Shown: positions 4,660 through 13,492 of the stretch, in pieces
Layout: every line of letters begins with the position of its first letter
Position numbering within the stretch: position 1 is the stretch's first letter
From: Candidatus Eiseniibacteriota bacterium
Lineage (GTDB): Bacteria > Eisenbacteria > RBG-16-71-46
Direction of reading: 5' to 3'
DNA: 14,248 nt
NCBI GenBank assembly: GCA_031366795.1
Contig: JANLOX010000355.1
Location: 1 to 14,248 of the forward strand
Notes under the pieces: generated by a model
What the model was told of the DNA's origin: nothing
Databases searched by the model: none
The model's input: only the letters and a program-made list of their open reading frames with translations
Made by a program: the position numbers and the translations under genes

Positions 4660-5397
4660 GTGCCGAATTCGCCGATGAACGAGACGCCGCCCAGCACGCC
4701 GCGGCGCACCAGCCCCGTGGTCGCCATTGTGGGCGCGCTCGCGGTGGTGGCGCTGAACGCGCTGCTGCTGGCGCTGGCCCTGGGCGGCATTGACGTGCTG
4801 CGCATCCACGCGCGAGCCCTCGCACTGCTGGCGATCTGGGCGGCCGGCGGCATCACGCTGGCGCTGCTGCAGCCGGTGCGCCGTCACGACCCCAAGGCGC
4901 TCGAACACGAATCGAAGTTCTCGCTGGTGATGATGCTGGTGCTGCCGATGCTCACGCCGCCGCTCGCGGCGCTGGGCGAGCGGCTCGGACTGTTCCTCGA
5001 TTTCGCGAAGGCGCCATTCGAGTGGGCCGGCGTCGCCTGCGTGGCGTTGGGACTCGCGATCCGCATCGCCGGCATGGCGCGGCTCGGCTCGCGCTTCTCG
5101 CCGCTCGTCGCGGTGCAGCAGGATCACGTGCTCGAGACCCACGGCATTTACGCTGCGGTCAGGCATCCCGGCTATCTCGGGGCATTGCTGGCCTGCGTCG
5201 GTGCGATGGTGGCATTCGGGAGCGCGCTCGCGCTGCCGCTCGTCGCGGCGTTCGCGGGGCTGCTGCAGGCCCGCATCGCGCGCGAAGAAGTGCTGCTCGA
5301 GCAATACTTTGGCGAGGCATTTTTCGATTACCGCAGGCGTGTGGGCGGGCTGCTGCCCCGCTTGTGGCCCGCGCGCGCGCCGCGGCCCGCGCGCTAG
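4660..5397 (+). CDS. Isoprenylcysteine carboxyl methyltransferase (ICMT/Ste14/PEMT-like) family membrane protein
   Basis: Multiple TM segments and the motifs LGSRFS, HVLETHGIYAAVRHPGYLG and RIAREEVLLEQYFGEAFFDYRRRV. Start is either GTG 4660 or ATG 4675. Confidence 0.85.
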   Translation: MPNSPMNETPPSTPRRTSPVVAIVGALAVVALNALLLALALGGIDVLRIHARALALLAIWAAGGITLALLQPVRRHDPKALEHESKFSLVMMLVLPMLTPPLAALGERLGLFLDFAKAPFEWAGVACVALGLAIRIAGMARLGSRFSPLVAVQQDHVLETHGIYAAVRHPGYLGALLACVGAMVAFGSALALPLVAAFAGLLQARIAREEVLLEQYFGEAFFDYRRRVGGLLPRLWPARAPRPAR

Positions 5398-5411
5398 CCA
5401 CGCGGCGATCT

Positions 5412-5446
5412 CCCGGGCAGGAAGCCTCGCAGGACCCGGGCAGGAA
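5412..5446 (+). repeat. 12-bp direct repeat CCCGGGCAGGAA (two copies, 23-bp period) upstream of ogt
   Basis: Copies at 5412-5423 and 5435-5446, with a third GCAGGA core at 5429-5434. Confidence 0.7.
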
Positions 5447-5483
5447 ACTGGTGCGCCCGCCCGGCCTGCGCTATCGTGGCAGC

Positions 5484-6071
5484 ATGCGCATTGCCTACCA
5501 CGTCATGTCGTCACCGCTCGGGCTGTTGTTTCTCGCCAGTGGCCCGAAGGGCCTTCAGTACCTTGAGTTCATGGATCGCAAGAGCATCAAGCGTATGATC
5601 GCCGCCCACGCCGACCACCATCCTGGCGCCACGTGGGAGCCCTCGCTGCTGGATCTCAAGGATGCCGTGGATCAACTCGAGGGCTACTTCTGCGGCGCGC
5701 TGACGACGTTCGACCTGACGCTCGCCCCGGCCGGCACCGACTTCCAGCACGCCGTGTGGAAATCGTTGCTCAGGATCCCCTACGGCGAGACCCGCAGCTA
5801 CGCGCAGATCGCCAAGGCGATCAAGCAGCCGAAGGCGGCGCGCGCGGTAGGCCTCGCCAACAACCAGAACCCGATCTCCGTCGTGGTGCCGTGTCACCGC
5901 GTCATCGGCGCGAACAAGAGCCTCGCGGGTTACGCGGGCGGCGTGCAGCGCAAGAAGTGGCTGCTCGCACACGAAGCAAAGTTCGCGCAGCACGGCGAGA
6001 CCGATGCGGATCTGTTCACGGCCGCGTCGAGCCGGTCGGGCAACAAGCGCGACAGCACACCGGGACGCTAA
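5484..6071 (+). CDS. ogt: Methylated-DNA--[protein]-cysteine S-methyltransferase
   Basis: Active-site PCHRVIG plus GTDFQHAVW, IPYGETRSY, ARAVG, NP and GYAGG...KKWLL motifs; N-terminal SPLG. Start placed at ATG 5484, 6 nt after TATCGT. Confidence 0.93.
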   Translation: MRIAYHVMSSPLGLLFLASGPKGLQYLEFMDRKSIKRMIAAHADHHPGATWEPSLLDLKDAVDQLEGYFCGALTTFDLTLAPAGTDFQHAVWKSLLRIPYGETRSYAQIAKAIKQPKAARAVGLANNQNPISVVVPCHRVIGANKSLAGYAGGVQRKKWLLAHEAKFAQHGETDADLFTAASSRSGNKRDSTPGR

Positions 6072-8154: not shown

Positions 8155-9192
8155 TCAAGGACGCGCCGCACGGAAGTGATCGTAGCCAGCGGGAGCCAGC
8201 GGCCTAACGCCGCCGCTGGCGTCTTTTAGAACAACTCCCGGACGGCTGGAAAATACCCCCACAAAGGTCAGTGGAATATCCAATTGCGCCGCAATCGACA
8301 GGCATCCCTCGCGGCCCGCGGGATCGACTGCCAGCACCAACTCGTAGTCGTCCGAGGCGCCAAAGCGCAACTCATCGAGCGGCTCCCCGAGTTCGCGAGC
8401 AGCAGCTGCGAGTTCCACGTCATTCGGCAGGATCTCCCCCGCCAGCCGGGCGCCCACACCGCTGGCCTCGCATAAGCGCGCCAGGTCGCTGGCCCAGCCA
8501 TCGGAGATGTCGATGGCGGCGCTGACCCAGCCCGTGCGCTCCAGCGTTCGCGCCAGTTCGACACGCGCGCGGGGGGAGCGCCACGCCGCGACGAGCCCCG
8601 CCCATCGTGAATCGCCCAGCGCAGCAGCATCACGGCTCGCCAGCCCAATGTTCGCACCAGAGCGCCCCGGCGATCCCGTCACCGCGATCAACTGGCCGGG
8701 ACGCGCGCCCGCGCGTGTCCATGCCTTGCCGGCGAGGCACTCGCCCATCAGCGTCAGCGTCAGCCATTCATCACCGCTCACCGCCGTGAGGTTGCCGCCC
8801 GCGATCACCGCGCCATGGCGCGCGAGCGCCAAGGCAATGCCGCGCTGGATCGCGACGAGATCCTCGACTGCATGTTCGCGCCGCGCGCCCAATGACACCA
8901 GGGCCCAGCGGGGCTCGGCGGCCATCGCGGCGAGATCGCTGAGATTCGCCTCGGCGAGGCGCGCGCCCAATTGCGGGGCGTCGATCCAGTCGCGCCGGAA
9001 GTGCACGCGGTCAACGAACGTGTCGGTCGTGACGACGAGGTCGTGCCCCGGCCGGGGCCGCATGACCGCCGCATCGTCGCCTGAGCCAAGCACCAATTGG
9101 CCCGCCGCCGTCGCGTCCGTCGGCACGGGCGCGACACCCACCAGGCGGCGAATCAGCTCGAACTCCCCGAGATCGCCGAGCGTTTCGTTCAT
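8155..9192 (-). CDS. thiL: Thiamine-monophosphate kinase
   Basis: GEFELI N-terminus, GDDAA, TTDTFVDRVHF, NLSDLAAM, DISDG, DDYEL and C-terminal GYDHF. Start placed at ATG 9192 (MNETLGDLGEF). Confidence 0.93.
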   Translation of the reverse strand: MNETLGDLGEFELIRRLVGVAPVPTDATAAGQLVLGSGDDAAVMRPRPGHDLVVTTDTFVDRVHFRRDWIDAPQLGARLAEANLSDLAAMAAEPRWALVSLGARREHAVEDLVAIQRGIALALARHGAVIAGGNLTAVSGDEWLTLTLMGECLAGKAWTRAGARPGQLIAVTGSPGRSGANIGLASRDAAALGDSRWAGLVAAWRSPRARVELARTLERTGWVSAAIDISDGWASDLARLCEASGVGARLAGEILPNDVELAAAARELGEPLDELRFGASDDYELVLAVDPAGREGCLSIAAQLDIPLTFVGVFSSRPGVVLKDASGGVRPLAPAGYDHFRAARP

Positions 9193-9199
9193 GCGGCGG

Positions 9200-9210
9200 A
9201 AACTACCACA
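9200..9210 (-). promoter_or_regulatory. Candidate extended -10 promoter (TGTG-G-TAGTTT) for leaderless thiL
   Basis: TRTGnTAnnnT match 7 nt upstream of the thiL ATG; no Shine-Dalgarno sequence. Confidence 0.5.
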
Positions 9211-9231
9211 GGGCTTGGGATTGGGCTCGTC

Positions 9232-9249
9232 GTTCTCTAATTGGAAAAT
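9232..9249. promoter_or_regulatory. Putative operator O1 (GTTCTCTAATTGGAAAAT)
   Basis: Quasi-palindrome TTYTCYA-NN-TRGARAA, repeated at 9341 and 9540. Confidence 0.6.
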
Positions 9250-9340
9250 AGCGGATTGGGCAACCCTAAGAATTGCCCCGCGCTCCCTCCACGTGGTAAG
9301 GCCCAGCCGGGCCGGGCCCGTGATTCCACATATCCCACAC

Positions 9341-9358
9341 GTTCTCCACATGGAAAAT
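9341..9358. promoter_or_regulatory. Putative operator O2 (GTTCTCCACATGGAAAAT)
   Basis: Same quasi-palindrome, upstream of the XRE regulator start. Confidence 0.6.
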
Positions 9359-9401
9359 TTACCGTGGCATCGATTGTCTCATTGGCCTACCCTGTGCGGG
9401 A

Positions 9402-10256
9402 ATGAGGCTAGCCCGCAAACCCCCACAAACAAAACGCCCCGCGGATCCCGTGGCGCAACTCATTCACGCCCAACGCACACGGCGCGATTGGTCATTCGCC
9501 AAGCTGGCGGCCGCGGCCGGACTACAATCACCCGCCTACGTTTTCCACATAGAGAACGGCACGAAGACCCCGCGCCCTGCGGTTGCTCGCAGGCTGGCAG
9601 AGGCTTTGGGGTTGGACGCGGAGCTCTTGGTCGCATGGGCGATCAGTCGTGGACGCGCGGACCTGGCGTCGTCGCTCCAAGCCGCGGAGCGGGTCCGGGC
9701 ATGGCTCGAGGAGACCCGTGCGCTGCCCCTTCCGGCAGGGGAGGGGGAGAGGGGAGAAGCATCGAGCAGGGCGTCAGCCGCTGCGTCCACACAACCCCCG
9801 GACACCGGACAAGGCACCGCACCACTCACCTCACCCGGCTCCATTACAATCCCGGTGTTGCCCGAGGGCGCCGATCCGCTGGCGGGCGACATCGCCGAGC
9901 GCGCCATCGAGACGATTCATGTCGAGCGCTCGATGTTGCCGCCGCTTAATGCCGGCGCGCGGCTCGTCGCCTTCCGACTGAGCGCCCACGGCGCGCGGCG
10001 CATTCCCGAATCGTTGCGAGCGGGCGATTGCGTCGTCGTGTTGCTCGGCGATGAACCGGCCGGCCCGGACACGCCATGCGCGATTCGCGTCGGCGCGCGC
10101 GTCGAGATCATGCGGCAGCCCGCTAGCGCGCCCGCCACACACTTGCCGCCGCCACGACCAGCGCACGATAGTGAAGCCTCCGCCACGCGCACCGCGGCAG
10201 CGGAGCGCGGCCGGCTGGTGGGCCGCGTGGTGCTGGCTATTCGCCGTTGGCTGTGA
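9402..10256 (+). CDS. XRE/Cro-CI family HTH transcriptional regulator with a degenerate peptidase S24-like C-terminal domain
   Basis: HTH_3-like segment QRTRRDWSFAKLAAAAGLQSPAYVFHIENGTKTPRPAVARRLAEALGLD. The C-terminal pattern IPVL...VAFRL...LRAGDCVVV...AIRVG...LVGRVVLAIR follows the S24 beta-fold pattern. Confidence 0.8.
   Translation: MRLARKPPQTKRPADPVAQLIHAQRTRRDWSFAKLAAAAGLQSPAYVFHIENGTKTPRPAVARRLAEALGLDAELLVAWAISRGRADLASSLQAAERVRAWLEETRALPLPAGEGERGEASSRASAAASTQPPDTGQGTAPLTSPGSITIPVLPEGADPLAGDIAERAIETIHVERSMLPPLNAGARLVAFRLSAHGARRIPESLRAGDCVVVLLGDEPAGPDTPCAIRVGARVEIMRQPASAPATHLPPPRPAHDSEASATRTAAAERGRLVGRVVLAIRRWL
9540..9557. promoter_or_regulatory. Putative intragenic operator O3 (GTTTTCCACATAGAGAAC) within the HTH-coding sequence
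   Basis: Same quasi-palindrome in inverted orientation; it coincides exactly with codons GTT TTC CAC ATA GAG AAC (V-F-H-I-E-N). Confidence 0.55.
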
Positions 10257-10281: not shown

Positions 10282-11262
10282 ATGATTTCAGCGCTTCGCT
10301 CCAAATACGTCGCTCTCGCACTCGCGACATTCGCGCTGATCACGCTCGCCTCCTGCGCCAGGCGCTCCGAAGTGCGCGGCCACGGCACGATCGAGATCGA
10401 CGAGATCGACGTCGCCTCGCTGGTCGGCGGCCGCGTCGCTCGGCTCGCGGTCGACGAGGGCGATAGCGTGCGCGCCGGTGACACGCTGGTGGTGCTCGAT
10501 CGCGGCGAAGTCGGCGCGGCATTGACGGCGCAGGCGGCGCAGGCAGAAAAGGCGGCCGCGCAATACCAGGACATGCGCTCGGGGCCGCGCACGCCGGAAA
10601 TCATCAGCGCCCGCGCCCAAGCGGCCGCGGCGAACTCCGCCGTGGAAATCACGGAGCGCGAATTCCAGCGCATGCAGGAACTGATGAACAGCCACGTTAT
10701 CTCGGCCTCCGAGCTCGACCGCTCCAAGAGCGCGCGCGACGCCGCGGTGGCGCGGCGCGATGCCGCCAGCGAACAACTCAAACTGCTCGAGAACGGCTTC
10801 CGCAAAGGACAGATCGATGCGGCCCAACACGGCCTCGAAGTCGCACGCGCCGAACTGCTCGCCAGCCGCAGCCGCGCAGGCGAACTGGTGCTCGTGGCGC
10901 CCTCGAACGGCATCGTGCTGCTGCGCAACTTCGAAGTCGGGGAGATCGCTGCCCCGGGCCAGGCCGTCGTGACACTCGGCGATCCGGACAGGCTGTGGAT
11001 GCGCGTCTATCTCGCGGCACCCGAATTACCGCGCGTGCATCGCGGCGACGCCGTCGAGGCGACCGTCATGGGCTCGAAGCAGTCCTTCAAAGGGCACGTC
11101 GTCGAGATCGCCACCGAAGCCGAGTTCACGCCGCGCTCGGCGCTGACCGAGGAAGAGCGCGCGAACCTGGTGTTCGGGGTGAAGGTCCGCTTCGATCCGA
11201 CCGCCGGCGTGCTCAAGCCCGGCCTGCCCGCCGAAGCGCGCTTCCCGGGCGCGCAGCCGTGA
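10282..11262 (+). CDS. HlyD/YbhG-like periplasmic adaptor (membrane fusion protein), probable lipoprotein
   Basis: Lipobox LASC; lipoyl-like motif GGRVARLAVDEGDSVRAGDTL; coiled-coil hairpin; LVAPSNG; AEFTPR...RANLVFGVKV...LKPGLPAEA, typical of YbhG-like MFPs. ATG at 10282. Confidence 0.9.
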   Translation: MISALRSKYVALALATFALITLASCARRSEVRGHGTIEIDEIDVASLVGGRVARLAVDEGDSVRAGDTLVVLDRGEVGAALTAQAAQAEKAAAQYQDMRSGPRTPEIISARAQAAAANSAVEITEREFQRMQELMNSHVISASELDRSKSARDAAVARRDAASEQLKLLENGFRKGQIDAAQHGLEVARAELLASRSRAGELVLVAPSNGIVLLRNFEVGEIAAPGQAVVTLGDPDRLWMRVYLAAPELPRVHRGDAVEATVMGSKQSFKGHVVEIATEAEFTPRSALTEEERANLVFGVKVRFDPTAGVLKPGLPAEARFPGAQP

Positions 11263-11999
11263 GCACGGCCTTGGGGGAGGCCGTCGTCGTCGATGGGCTG
11301 ACGAGGCGATTCGGAACCCTCACGGCGGTCGACAACGTCTCGCTGTCGATCCGCGCCGGCGAATTGTTCGGCATGCTCGGCCCCAATGGCTCGGGCAAGA
11401 CGACGCTGATCCGCATGTTGTGCGGCCTGCTGGTTCCCAGCGCGGGCACGGCGCGTGTTGCCGGTATCGATGTGGGGAAGGAGCCGGATCGCGTGAAGGA
11501 ACACATCGGCTACATGTCGCAGGCCTACGGCCTCTACCGCGATCTCACCGCGGAAGAGAACCTCAAGTTCTACGGTGGCGTCTACGGACTCGGCCCCGAA
11601 CTCAAGCAACGCGTGGCATGGGCCACGGAGCGCATGCGGCTCGGCGAACTGGGGGGCCGGCTCTCCGGCGTGCTCTCGGGCGGCCAGAAGCAACGCGTCG
11701 CCCTCGGTTGCGCCTTGATGCACCGCCCGCCCGTGCTGTTCCTCGACGAACCCACCGCCGGCGTCGACCCGGCCGCACGCCGCATGTTCTGGGAGATCAT
11801 CCGCAGCCTCACCGCGGAAGGCGTGACGATCATCTGCACCACGCACTACATGGACGAGGCCGAACGCTTCGACCGGCTGGTATTCCTCTCGCGCGGCCAC
11901 GTCACCGCGCTCGGGACGCCTGCCGAAGTACGGGCGAAATACGGCGCGACCGCGAGCCTCGAGGACGTGTTCATCCTACTCCAGGACAAGGACTCATGA
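11259..11999 (+). CDS. ABC transporter ATP-binding protein (ABC-2/YbhF-like, single NBD)
   Basis: Walker A GPNGSGKT, Q-loop YMSQ, signature LSGGQ, Walker B LFLDEP, H-loop TTHYMDEAE. The GTG start overlaps the upstream stop (GTGA). Confidence 0.93.
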   Translation: MSTALGEAVVVDGLTRRFGTLTAVDNVSLSIRAGELFGMLGPNGSGKTTLIRMLCGLLVPSAGTARVAGIDVGKEPDRVKEHIGYMSQAYGLYRDLTAEENLKFYGGVYGLGPELKQRVAWATERMRLGELGGRLSGVLSGGQKQRVALGCALMHRPPVLFLDEPTAGVDPAARRMFWEIIRSLTAEGVTIICTTHYMDEAERFDRLVFLSRGHVTALGTPAEVRAKYGATASLEDVFILLQDKDS

Positions 12000-13123
12000 G
12001 CCCCCGCCGCCTGCGCGCCATCTTCGTGAAGGAATTCACGCAGATGCGCCGCGATCGCGCGACGCTGCGCCTGATGCTCGTGATCCCCGTCATGCAGCTG
12101 CTGATCTTCGGCTATGCCATCCGCATGGACGTACGCAACCTGCCGCTCGCGGTATTCGACCAGAGCCGCACGCAGGAGAGCCGCGCGCTGGTGCAACAGT
12201 TCGAGGCGACCCGCAATTTCAAGGTCACGCAACACGTGTCGTCCTACGAACTGGCCCAGCGCCTGATCGACGCCGGGGATGCGCACTCAGCCATCGTGAT
12301 CCCCGAGGACTACGCGCGCGCCATCAAGCGCATGCAGGGGGCGCGCGTGCAGGTGCTCGTCGATGCCAGCTCGCCGACCGCGGCGCAGGGCGCGATCGCG
12401 GCGGCGCAGATGGTCGGCCAGCGCGCCAACGTCCAGATGCTGCTCCAGCGCGCGGGAGGGCAGATCAAGGGCGACGCGACGCCGGTCGATATCCGCGTCC
12501 GCCCGCTCTATAACCCTGCGCTGTCGAGCCCCTTGTTCATCGTGCCCGGGATCATCGGCATGATCCTGTCGAACGTGCTGATCATCATCACCGCGCTGTC
12601 GATCGTGCGCGAGCGCGAATACGGCACGCTCGAACAGTTGATCGTCACCCCGCTGACCCGCACCGAATTGATGCTCGGCAAACTGTCGCCCTACATCTTC
12701 GTCGGCTTCTTCCAGATCACGGCGGTCCTGCTGCTCGGGCACTTCCTGTTCCATGTGCCGATCCAGGGCAGCCTGCTGCTGATCTACGCCACCTCATTCC
12801 TGTTCGTGGTCGCCAGCCTCGGCCTGGGACTGTTGATCTCGACGCTCGTCACGGCGCAGGCGCCGGCGATGCAGACCGCCTTCATGTTCCTGCTGCCGAA
12901 CGTGCTGTTGTCGGGCTTCATGTTCCCGCGGGAGGCGATGCCGACGATCGCGCGCGACATCGGCCTGTTCCTGCCGCTGACCTATTACCTCGAAATTCTC
13001 CGCGGCATCATTCTGAAGGGCGTGGGCCTGCGCGAGTTGTGGGTGCAAGCCCTGGCCCTCGTGGGATTCGCGGTGCTGTACTTCACCATCGCCACGCTGC
13101 GCTTCCACAAGAAGCTCGCCTGA
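11996..13123 (+). CDS. ABC-2 type permease (YbhS/YbhR-like)
   Basis: KEFTQMRRDR N-terminus, large periplasmic loop, YNP...VPG, IVREREYGTLEQLIVTP, LSGFMFP and PLTY. ATGA overlap with the ATPase stop. Confidence 0.92.
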   Translation: MSPRRLRAIFVKEFTQMRRDRATLRLMLVIPVMQLLIFGYAIRMDVRNLPLAVFDQSRTQESRALVQQFEATRNFKVTQHVSSYELAQRLIDAGDAHSAIVIPEDYARAIKRMQGARVQVLVDASSPTAAQGAIAAAQMVGQRANVQMLLQRAGGQIKGDATPVDIRVRPLYNPALSSPLFIVPGIIGMILSNVLIIITALSIVREREYGTLEQLIVTPLTRTELMLGKLSPYIFVGFFQITAVLLLGHFLFHVPIQGSLLLIYATSFLFVVASLGLGLLISTLVTAQAPAMQTAFMFLLPNVLLSGFMFPREAMPTIARDIGLFLPLTYYLEILRGIILKGVGLRELWVQALALVGFAVLYFTIATLRFHKKLA

Positions 13124-13150: not shown

Positions 13151-13492
13151 ATGCCATCACCCGAAGACCTCGAACGCCTCGCCAAGGACTGCGACATCAC
13201 GCCCTACCGTTCCTCCGGGCCGGGCGGGCAGAAGAAGAACAAGACCGAGTCGAGCATTCGCATCCTGCACCGCCCGAGCGGCACCACGCGGCTCGCCACC
13301 AAGAGCCGCTCCCAGCTCCGCAACAAGGAGGCCGCGCTCGAGAGCCTGTGGATCGAACTGCAACGGCGCGCCCGCAAGCGCAAACCACGCGTGCCGACCA
13401 AGCCGACGGGGGCCGCCAAGAAGCGGCGGCTCGACTCGAAGCGGCGCGATTCCGACACCAAGAAACTGCGCCGCAAGGACAGCGATGAGTAG
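13151..13492 (+). CDS. arfB: Peptidyl-tRNA hydrolase domain / ribosome rescue factor (ArfB/C12orf65-like GGQ protein)
   Basis: SSGPGGQKKNKTES, RSQLRNKEAA and the basic tail RKPRVPTKPTGAAKKRRLDSKRR...KKLR. AGGAG Shine-Dalgarno at 13138-13142. Confidence 0.8.
   Translation: MPSPEDLERLAKDCDITPYRSSGPGGQKKNKTESSIRILHRPSGTTRLATKSRSQLRNKEAALESLWIELQRRARKRKPRVPTKPTGAAKKRRLDSKRRDSDTKKLRRKDSDE

Follow-up and report, generated by a model that had tools for sequence, protein, structure and literature searches.

The 14,248-nucleotide stretch of DNA analyzed here, called the window below, encodes a transcriptional regulator in which six codons of the predicted DNA-reading helix also spell a palindrome that stands twice more upstream of the gene. 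This raises the question of whether the in-gene copy is an accident of coding, a feature of the mRNA, or an operator through which the regulator acts on its own gene, and, if it is an operator, which protein reads it and to what end.

The regulator and its three palindromes

The regulator gene (9402..10256, plus strand; 284 amino acids) encodes an XRE/Cro-CI helix-turn-helix (HTH) at about residues 18-78 and a LexA/CI-like C-terminal beta domain. An initial annotation, made from the window alone, had called the HTH a Cro/CI type, and this agrees with the presence of an HTH_3-type domain above the curated Pfam cut-off (PF01381, HTH_3, 34.5 bits against 23; PF13560, HTH_31, 41.4 bits against 27). 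A structure model of the protein (pLDDT 77.8) has helices at residues 16-27, 32-38, 44-51, and 59-69 and the beta domain at about 147-280. The best Foldseek matches include a lambda-186 hybrid repressor, LexA, and lambda CI, with two Raf1 entries interleaved; those to the C-terminal domain are 7jvt, 3k2z, 3jsp, and 2hnf (E 4e-5 to 3e-3), and a profile search gave a weak match to the C-terminal part of T. maritima LexA (119-195, E 0.002). Pfam S24, which within the genome finds only the true LexA, has no match in the regulator. The GDSM of the genome's LexA aligns to GARR in the regulator, in a weak alignment (probability 0.4%), and the consensus of 40 family sequences has GARR and PEGADP, the Lys position being judged by eye; the catalytic Ser (GDSM) with its Lys and the Ala-Gly cleavage site of S24 repressors were not found in the regulator. 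Because GDSM appears to be replaced by GARR and Pfam S24 does not match, the C-terminal domain is likely non-cleaving. In the predicted recognition helix, His49 aligns with Ser33 of SinR, a recognition-helix residue that has been proposed to alter specificity (PMC3163267).

Members of this unnamed family were found in 58 of 102 genomes of one Eisenbacteria-like order and in none of the 104 other genomes searched in the phylum, and wider data contributed 173 family representatives at E up to 1e-30, as protein without DNA. Among 34 candidate stretches from viral contigs, none is a relative.

The three palindromes are 18-mers that lie exactly where the initial annotation had placed them and fit the consensus that it gave, each being self-complementary at 12 of 18 positions. 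O1, the distal upstream site (9232..9249), is 26 nt from the predicted -10 of the divergent thiL gene and 109 nt upstream of O2; O2, the promoter-proximal site (9341..9358), ends 6 nt before the predicted -35 and 29 nt before the predicted -10 of the regulator. Their centers had been put at about 48 and 52 nt from the divergent starts; by measurement, O1 is centered 48.5 nt from the ATG of thiL and O2 52.5 nt from that of the regulator. O3 (9540..9557, plus strand) spans exactly six codons in frame with the ORF at 9402-10256, codons 47-52 (GTT TTC CAC ATA GAG AAC, read as VFHIEN), and these form the second half of modeled helix 3 (residues 44-51), in keeping with the earlier placement at the end of that helix. 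Its GTT and ATA codons are indeed disfavored: in this 66% GC genome, 2,157 long ORFs use GTT for 7.2% of Val and ATA for 2.4% of Ile, and none of the 31 [VI]xx[IV]EN peptides in these ORFs uses both xTT and xTA.

A genome scan had been suggested as a check on the motif, and with a matrix trained only on 23 upstream sites of other loci, from other genomes, the three sites outrank every other match. Over 4.18 Mb, O1, O3, and O2 take ranks 1-3 of 37 matches above 11 bits, with scores of 25.6, 23.3, and 23.2 bits against 20.2 for the fourth. The consensus used to pick the training sites placed no requirement on the six central positions, so the preferences seen there (Y at 7, A/T in the center, R at 12) do not stem from the filter. 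The stretch is also covered by contigs of two sequencing runs, with no listed change in O1-O3, though these contigs may be the assembly's own source. Another, degenerate copy, matching O3 at 11/18 positions and containing CCACA repeats, occupies 9321-9340 of the window, 20 nt upstream of O2; one related locus (L002) retains part of it.

Codon choice in the recognition helix across related loci

DNA of related loci was taken from 54 of 68 genome match rows, the remaining 14 rows being from genera whose sampled members belong to subfamilies B or C, and from 13 metagenome loci. Grouping by the helix-3 peptide and not by the DNA motif gave subfamilies A (VFHIEN-like, 22 distinct loci), B (LFNIE, 27), C (I/LSQ[L/I/M]E, 13), and D (2). 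Genomes of 7 genera contributed 10 of the 22 A loci; because the metagenome scan picked loci by their helix peptide, amino-acid variety is under-sampled, and the loci are mutually related. We left out L085 (identical to L008 over the region), L055 (no helix motif matched), and L018-L022 (unrelated or duplicate matches); the truncated L086 is absent only from the synonymous-column alignment and the tree, and the near-copies L002 and L079 only from the phasing and shuffle tests.

The common motif of subfamily A is the 18-bp RTTCTCY-N4-RGAGAAY. In 21 aligned A loci, the helix Ile codon is ATA in 19/19 cases and the helix Val codon GTT in 19/19, against gene-wide rates of 0.034 and 0.11, and of the 62 conserved columns these two depart most from codon usage (G = 129 and 84; the highest outside O3 is 22). 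Synonymous identity elsewhere in the gene is 0.43 in the same loci, compared with 0.39 expected at saturation, and their median protein identity is 38%. Counted over all 22 A loci, the first codon is GTT in 20 and ATT in 2, the fourth is ATA in 20, GTA in 1, and GTC in 1, and GAG is invariant (22); Ile at the fourth position is always ATA (20/20) and Val at the first always GTT (20/20), compared with ATA for 2/44 Ile and GTT for 18/63 Val elsewhere in the HTH region. Scored with the upstream-site-only matrix, the actual encoding of O3 is within the best 4 of 144-576 synonymous options in 21 of the 22 loci; L007 is the exception at the fourth codon, with GTC and an encoding rank of 43/256. Amino-acid exchanges mostly preserve the motif, as with ATT for Ile in L036 and L054 and GTA for Val in L054, and in L008 a CTC TAT pair gives a perfect palindrome, read as VLYIEN, the same sequence being found upstream in L076 and L084.

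The alignment of orthologues proposed in the initial annotation thus finds the synonymous positions of the VFHIEN codons constrained across the 22 A loci rather than freely varying, and this conservation argues that the in-gene copy in the HTH coding sequence is real and under selection. All 22 A loci carry the motif both upstream and in the helix codons, and a selected copy of the upstream motif within the coding sequence is a feature by which own-gene operators such as those of purR and lacI are recognized. The further expectation that in-gene and upstream copies would co-vary site by site gained no support (p = 0.08).

The same pattern is absent from the sister subfamilies. The best 18-mer shared between HTH codons and upstream DNA falls in the O3 register in 17/22 A loci, 0/27 B loci, and 0/14 C-pattern loci (the last including L018, an unrelated XRE gene), raw identity alone giving no separation of the groups, as GC-rich chance matches reach 13-15. 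Subfamily B is without an in-gene copy and encodes its helix in common codons, with ATC in 27/27 loci. In the tree, the B loci group together with good support and fall within A at the end of a long branch; the backbone is weakly supported and the root is a midpoint root only, and the in-gene site was likely lost in this subfamily. We also considered whether such copies are a general property of XRE genes and rejected this, as 0/9 other HTH_3 genes of the genome share a palindromic 18-mer better than 13/18, compared with 15/18 for the regulator. In one HTH_3 gene elsewhere (L111, G000:C173 near 27899), the helix-3 region contains a palindromic 18-mer that is AT-rich and resembles an upstream sequence at 12/18 positions, which may be chance.

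Predicted promoter architecture, the proposed brake, and the probable reader of the motif

The predicted promoter of the regulator consists of a -35 (TGGCAT) at 9365..9370 and, 17 nt further on, a -10 (TACCCT) at 9388..9393, both on the plus strand, the latter 8 nt before the ATG; a sigma-70 consensus scan returned 0 promoters at its threshold. A TANNNT hexamer is found 5-8 nt before the start codon in 19/22 A and 27/27 B loci, and since the predicted -10 is only this far from the start, a leaderless mRNA is implied for the regulator. TANNNT hexamers before both thiL (9200-9205, minus strand) and the regulator (9388-9393, plus strand), and in most related loci, suggest that leaderless mRNAs occur more widely in the lineage. 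The -35 column is T in 18/19 A loci, and TGGCAY is conserved at the same place in subfamily B.

In 14 of the 19 A loci with a -10 call, 27-30 nt separate the end of the nearest upstream site from the -10, which puts the site 4-7 nt upstream of a poorly conserved -35. A site just upstream of the -35 is in the place typical of activators, and a site in the promoter spacer in that typical of repressors. In L008, L078, L079, and, weakly, L084, the nearest upstream site lies over the predicted -35 (gap 10-16 nt) and the in-gene copy is still kept, so activation at O2 would not be universal. Several orthologues have a second upstream copy, with or without an adjacent thiL, and nearest upstream copies are 30-139 nt apart.

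Our preferred reading, to which we assign a probability of about 0.62, is that the palindromes are operators of the regulator and that the copy in codons 47-52 brakes the regulator's own gene. A dimer of the regulator would read the palindrome, and O2, centered near -50 just upstream of the weak predicted -35, would stimulate the predicted leaderless promoter until rising protein levels fill O3 (+139 to +156) and transcription is cut. The brake would most simply be a roadblock to RNA polymerase, possibly reinforced by an O2-O3 loop via the CI-like C-terminal domain, and the circuit would set the level of the regulator together with that of the downstream efflux cassette and arfB-like gene. A regulator bound at least 75 bases inside a gene can cause transcription-translation complexes to stall (PMC13584721). 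Such a site may have been easy to acquire, as the half-site GAGAAY comes free with the common Glu-Asn codons of XRE helices and a few codon choices would complete it. In subfamily B, a half-site RGAGAAY lies in the promoter spacer, 4 nt before the predicted -10, in 26/27 loci, and together with the conserved -35 this may represent plain promoter repression that replaced the brake.

A possible but distinctly less probable arrangement would keep the operators as the regulator's own and make all of them repressive, with O2 (and O1) looping with O3 around the promoter and no activation. The closest folds are those of lambda and 186 CI-type repressors, and 186 CI is described as looping via distal sites about 300 bp away (PMC3675496). 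An O2-O3 distance of 178-200 bp in 16/20 loci, the four loci with an upstream site over the -35, and the apparent phasing of O1-O2 spacings at 10.8-11.1 bp (p 0.004-0.009, n = 8, four periods tried) would all suit such loops. However, the O2-O3 spacing shows no helical phasing (Rayleigh p 0.66-0.82), which slightly favors a roadblock over a tight loop, and the gap of 27-30 nt to the -10 in most loci together with the weak -35 better suits an activator site.

The braking circuit depends on the regulator being the reader of the motif, and here the subfamilies are informative. With up to 1 mismatch, the A motif is found upstream in 21/22 A, 0/27 B, and 0/13 C loci, and with up to 2 mismatches in 22/22 A loci. 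Subfamily C has its own palindrome, found upstream with up to 2 mismatches in 11/13 C, 1/22 A, and 0/27 B loci, a count that is partly circular because the C motif was defined by eye from the same C loci; its geometry is similar to that of the A motif, it was noted in L011, L012, L016, L017, L045, L046, L056, L059, L061, L068, and L073, and it is often shared with a divergent gene. Helix class therefore tracks motif class across A, B, and C, and the motif stays with the regulator gene through changing neighbors. In five carrier genomes, 11 of 17 motif matches are at the regulator gene, the other 6 being the same number as in five genomes without the gene; occurrence at background frequency, which the initial annotation had named as evidence against the idea, thus applies to the off-locus matches only. 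A wider regulon was rejected on the same grounds, and the five off-locus matches that were inspected lie in long GC-rich open frames. Because the motif is local and follows both the gene and its helix class, and because LexA, DnaA, and a hairpin are disfavored, the regulator protein itself is very probably the reader of the palindromes.

Binding of the sites by some other factor, whether DnaA, LexA, or an unknown global regulator, is improbable. The DnaA box motif is TTWTNCACA, and O3 of the window contains a match to it; there are also nine other HTH_3 genes in the genome that could supply a reader. Yet the DnaA-box match is present at O3 in just 4/22 A loci and a conserved 9-mer was not found there, which tells against the DnaA alternative raised in the initial annotation, and a factor with no regulon beyond the regulator gene, whose motif follows that gene and changes with its helix, is hardly a global one. 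The genome's LexA box is a different palindrome with 6 copies genome-wide and 0 at 9100-9700, and membership of the SOS (LexA) regulon was rejected accordingly. This palindrome, TGYAC-N4-GTRCA, stands upstream of the true lexA (L087, G000:C230 near 35275) and is a candidate SOS box of the lineage, with other copies at C207:47130, C298:3050, C344:4210, C409:5415, and C421:956.

Marginally less likely still is that O3 is kept as an mRNA hairpin or a rare-codon translation pause and not as a DNA site. O3 does fold into a short stem-loop in most loci, with a median folding-energy rank in the top 7% of encodings, but the Ile codon is in the loop, and ATC would be equally or more stable than ATA in 17/20 loci. 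A purine is found at the Ile-codon position in 45/46 matrix strand counts, and for Ile only ATA gives it; moreover, the upstream copies precede the predicted start, and a pause would have no need to match an upstream motif. Least credible of all is that O3 is a by-product of the conserved peptide, for which GAG AAC is common as Glu-Asn and leaves the half-site free, or of copying between upstream and in-gene sites, as the two copies in L036, which differ at one base, might suggest, given that a 20-bit site arises from VFHIEN at the genome's codon usage with a chance of 0.0065, that subfamily B uses ATC throughout, and that in-gene copies are no closer to their own upstream copies than to those of other loci (p = 0.08).

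What remains of the circuit first proposed, in which the same bases encode the helix and an autoregulatory operator, is a selected in-gene copy with the regulator protein as its likely reader; site-to-site co-variation is one part that gained no support. The initial annotation had further proposed that thiL and the efflux operon may be co-controlled. thiL, encoding thiamine-phosphate kinase (TIGR01379 over cut-off), lies divergently at 8155..9192 on the minus strand with a predicted -10 (TAGTTT) at 9205-9200. It neighbors the regulator directly in 5 distinct A loci, across gaps of 26, 45, 87, 26, and 4 nt, and no site near thiL was found in 7/7 A loci where another gene intervenes. Because neither the adjacency of thiL nor a nearby site is conserved, O1 is better seen as a putative second upstream operator than as thiL control, and a conserved co-control of thiL is not supported. 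In L005, L006, L036, L081, L082, and L084, an unnamed gene of about 200 codons with a shared C-terminal 'TWGAxKRRY'-like motif lies between thiL and the regulator, and beyond thiL the window has an Ogt-type DNA alkyl-repair gene (5355-6071), as do L003, L004, L008, and L078.

The efflux cassette, in contrast, stays a likely target, though an optional one. It comprises an HlyD-type adaptor, an ABC ATPase, and an ABC-2 permease (RbbA-like pieces) at 10282..13123 on the plus strand, begins after a 25-nt gap from the regulator stop, and is likely co-transcribed with the regulator; it is downstream in many A and B loci. It is followed in the window by a gene for an ArfB-like RF-1-domain protein (13151..13492, plus strand; below the NCBIfam ArfB cut-off), which is likely also a target. 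This arfB-like gene is the steadiest neighbor of the regulator (window, L004, L007, L008, L076, L080, L054, and 7/13 C loci), and because it directly follows the regulator in 5 A loci as well as in those C loci, regulator and arfB may be the older unit. A roadblock inside the gene would leave ribosomes stalled, and arfB-like factors rescue ribosomes of this kind, a link that is speculative.

Probable dual coding and comparison with known systems

If the brake operates as proposed, this would be an unusually clean case of bacterial dual coding, in which six codons build part of a DNA-reading helix and spell its likely site, and the constraint can be measured at distances where synonymous sites are saturated, against sister subfamilies as controls. 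An ideal operator, on either strand, would translate into the second half of its own recognition helix (VLYIEN), and the helix choices held by the operator would include V to I as ATT, I to V as GTA, and FH to LY as CTC TAT. We suggest tentatively, as the odds are rather against it, that the operator limits the amino acids open to the helix and that one point mutation can alter the key and one lock together; a change of specificity or of promoter logic in a subfamily would then require loss of the in-gene site, as appears to have happened in B and C. That recognition-helix codons resemble their targets is a contested idea, and the likeness found here would be explained by selection for feedback and not by a code. 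The locus offers a small, portable test system for the co-evolution of regulators and their sites. For an unnamed family of regulators in uncultured bacteria, the analysis also provides a putative operator, a prediction of how the promoter works, and likely targets.

In our literature search, which most of the subscription literature lay beyond, we found no paper on this regulator family or on an operator in recognition-helix codons, nor any case of an operator falling on the specificity half of the helix with which an XRE protein recognizes DNA, in which codon constraint had been measured and subfamilies served as controls. Lambda and 186 CI resemble the regulator in having an HTH and several operators, those of the regulator being putative, and its modeled C-terminal domain is similar to their LexA/CI-type fold. 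Lambda PRM is activated and leaderless and has a separate repressing site. For 186 CI, distal sites and loops are described (PMC3675496, PMC8053113). The regulator differs in being chromosomal and syntenic, with no phage relatives found and no Pfam S24 match, and in having its putative brake site in recognition-helix codons. The C proteins of restriction-modification systems also have an XRE HTH, and C.AhdI was among the regulator's matches; separate activating and repressing operators are described for them (PMC2647307). These operators are 4 nt apart, in contrast to the putative ones of the regulator, which are about 190 bp apart with one in the gene, and no restriction-modification genes were found among the neighbors examined (thiL, efflux cassette, and arfB). 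SinR of Bacillus subtilis, for which we know of no in-gene site, is a further XRE protein but has other helix residues, another C-terminal domain, and a global regulon. Its half-site is given as GTTCTYT, which resembles RTTCTCY, and inverted repeats are reported to bind best (PMC3163267).

Operators within a regulator's own gene are already known from purR and lacI, and ori-lambda likewise lies in gene O. The lacI site is at the 3' end of the gene and not in HTH codons. The overlap of a lac operator with lacI is noted in a source that, with a second one, also describes how LacI and PurR (the latter on purB) bound in coding DNA block RNA polymerase, with LacI giving rise to a truncated, tmRNA-tagged product (PMC13584721, PMC6524683). 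purB differs in not being PurR's own gene. In lambda, binding sites of the O protein are found inside gene O (PMC5043065), but these are four iterons of a replication origin, not a transcription operator in a reading helix.

A close parallel is E. coli purR. In purR, the in-gene site spans the turn of the HTH and the beginning of the recognition helix. In the purR record one motif occurs twice, and its second copy, over codons 10-15, falls within the LacI HTH region that Pfam places at 3-48; both places overlap PurR operators (PMC5110547), and the gene is autoregulated (PMC3159470). Autoregulation of purR works through two control sites downstream of its promoter, and what the two systems share is a repressor-type site, putative in the present case, in the HTH codons of the regulator's own gene. 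PurR belongs to the LacI family, has a global regulon, and is controlled by a ligand, whereas the regulator described here is XRE/CI-like and would run a local circuit, and its site covers the second half of helix 3, with a codon constraint that could be measured in 22 loci.
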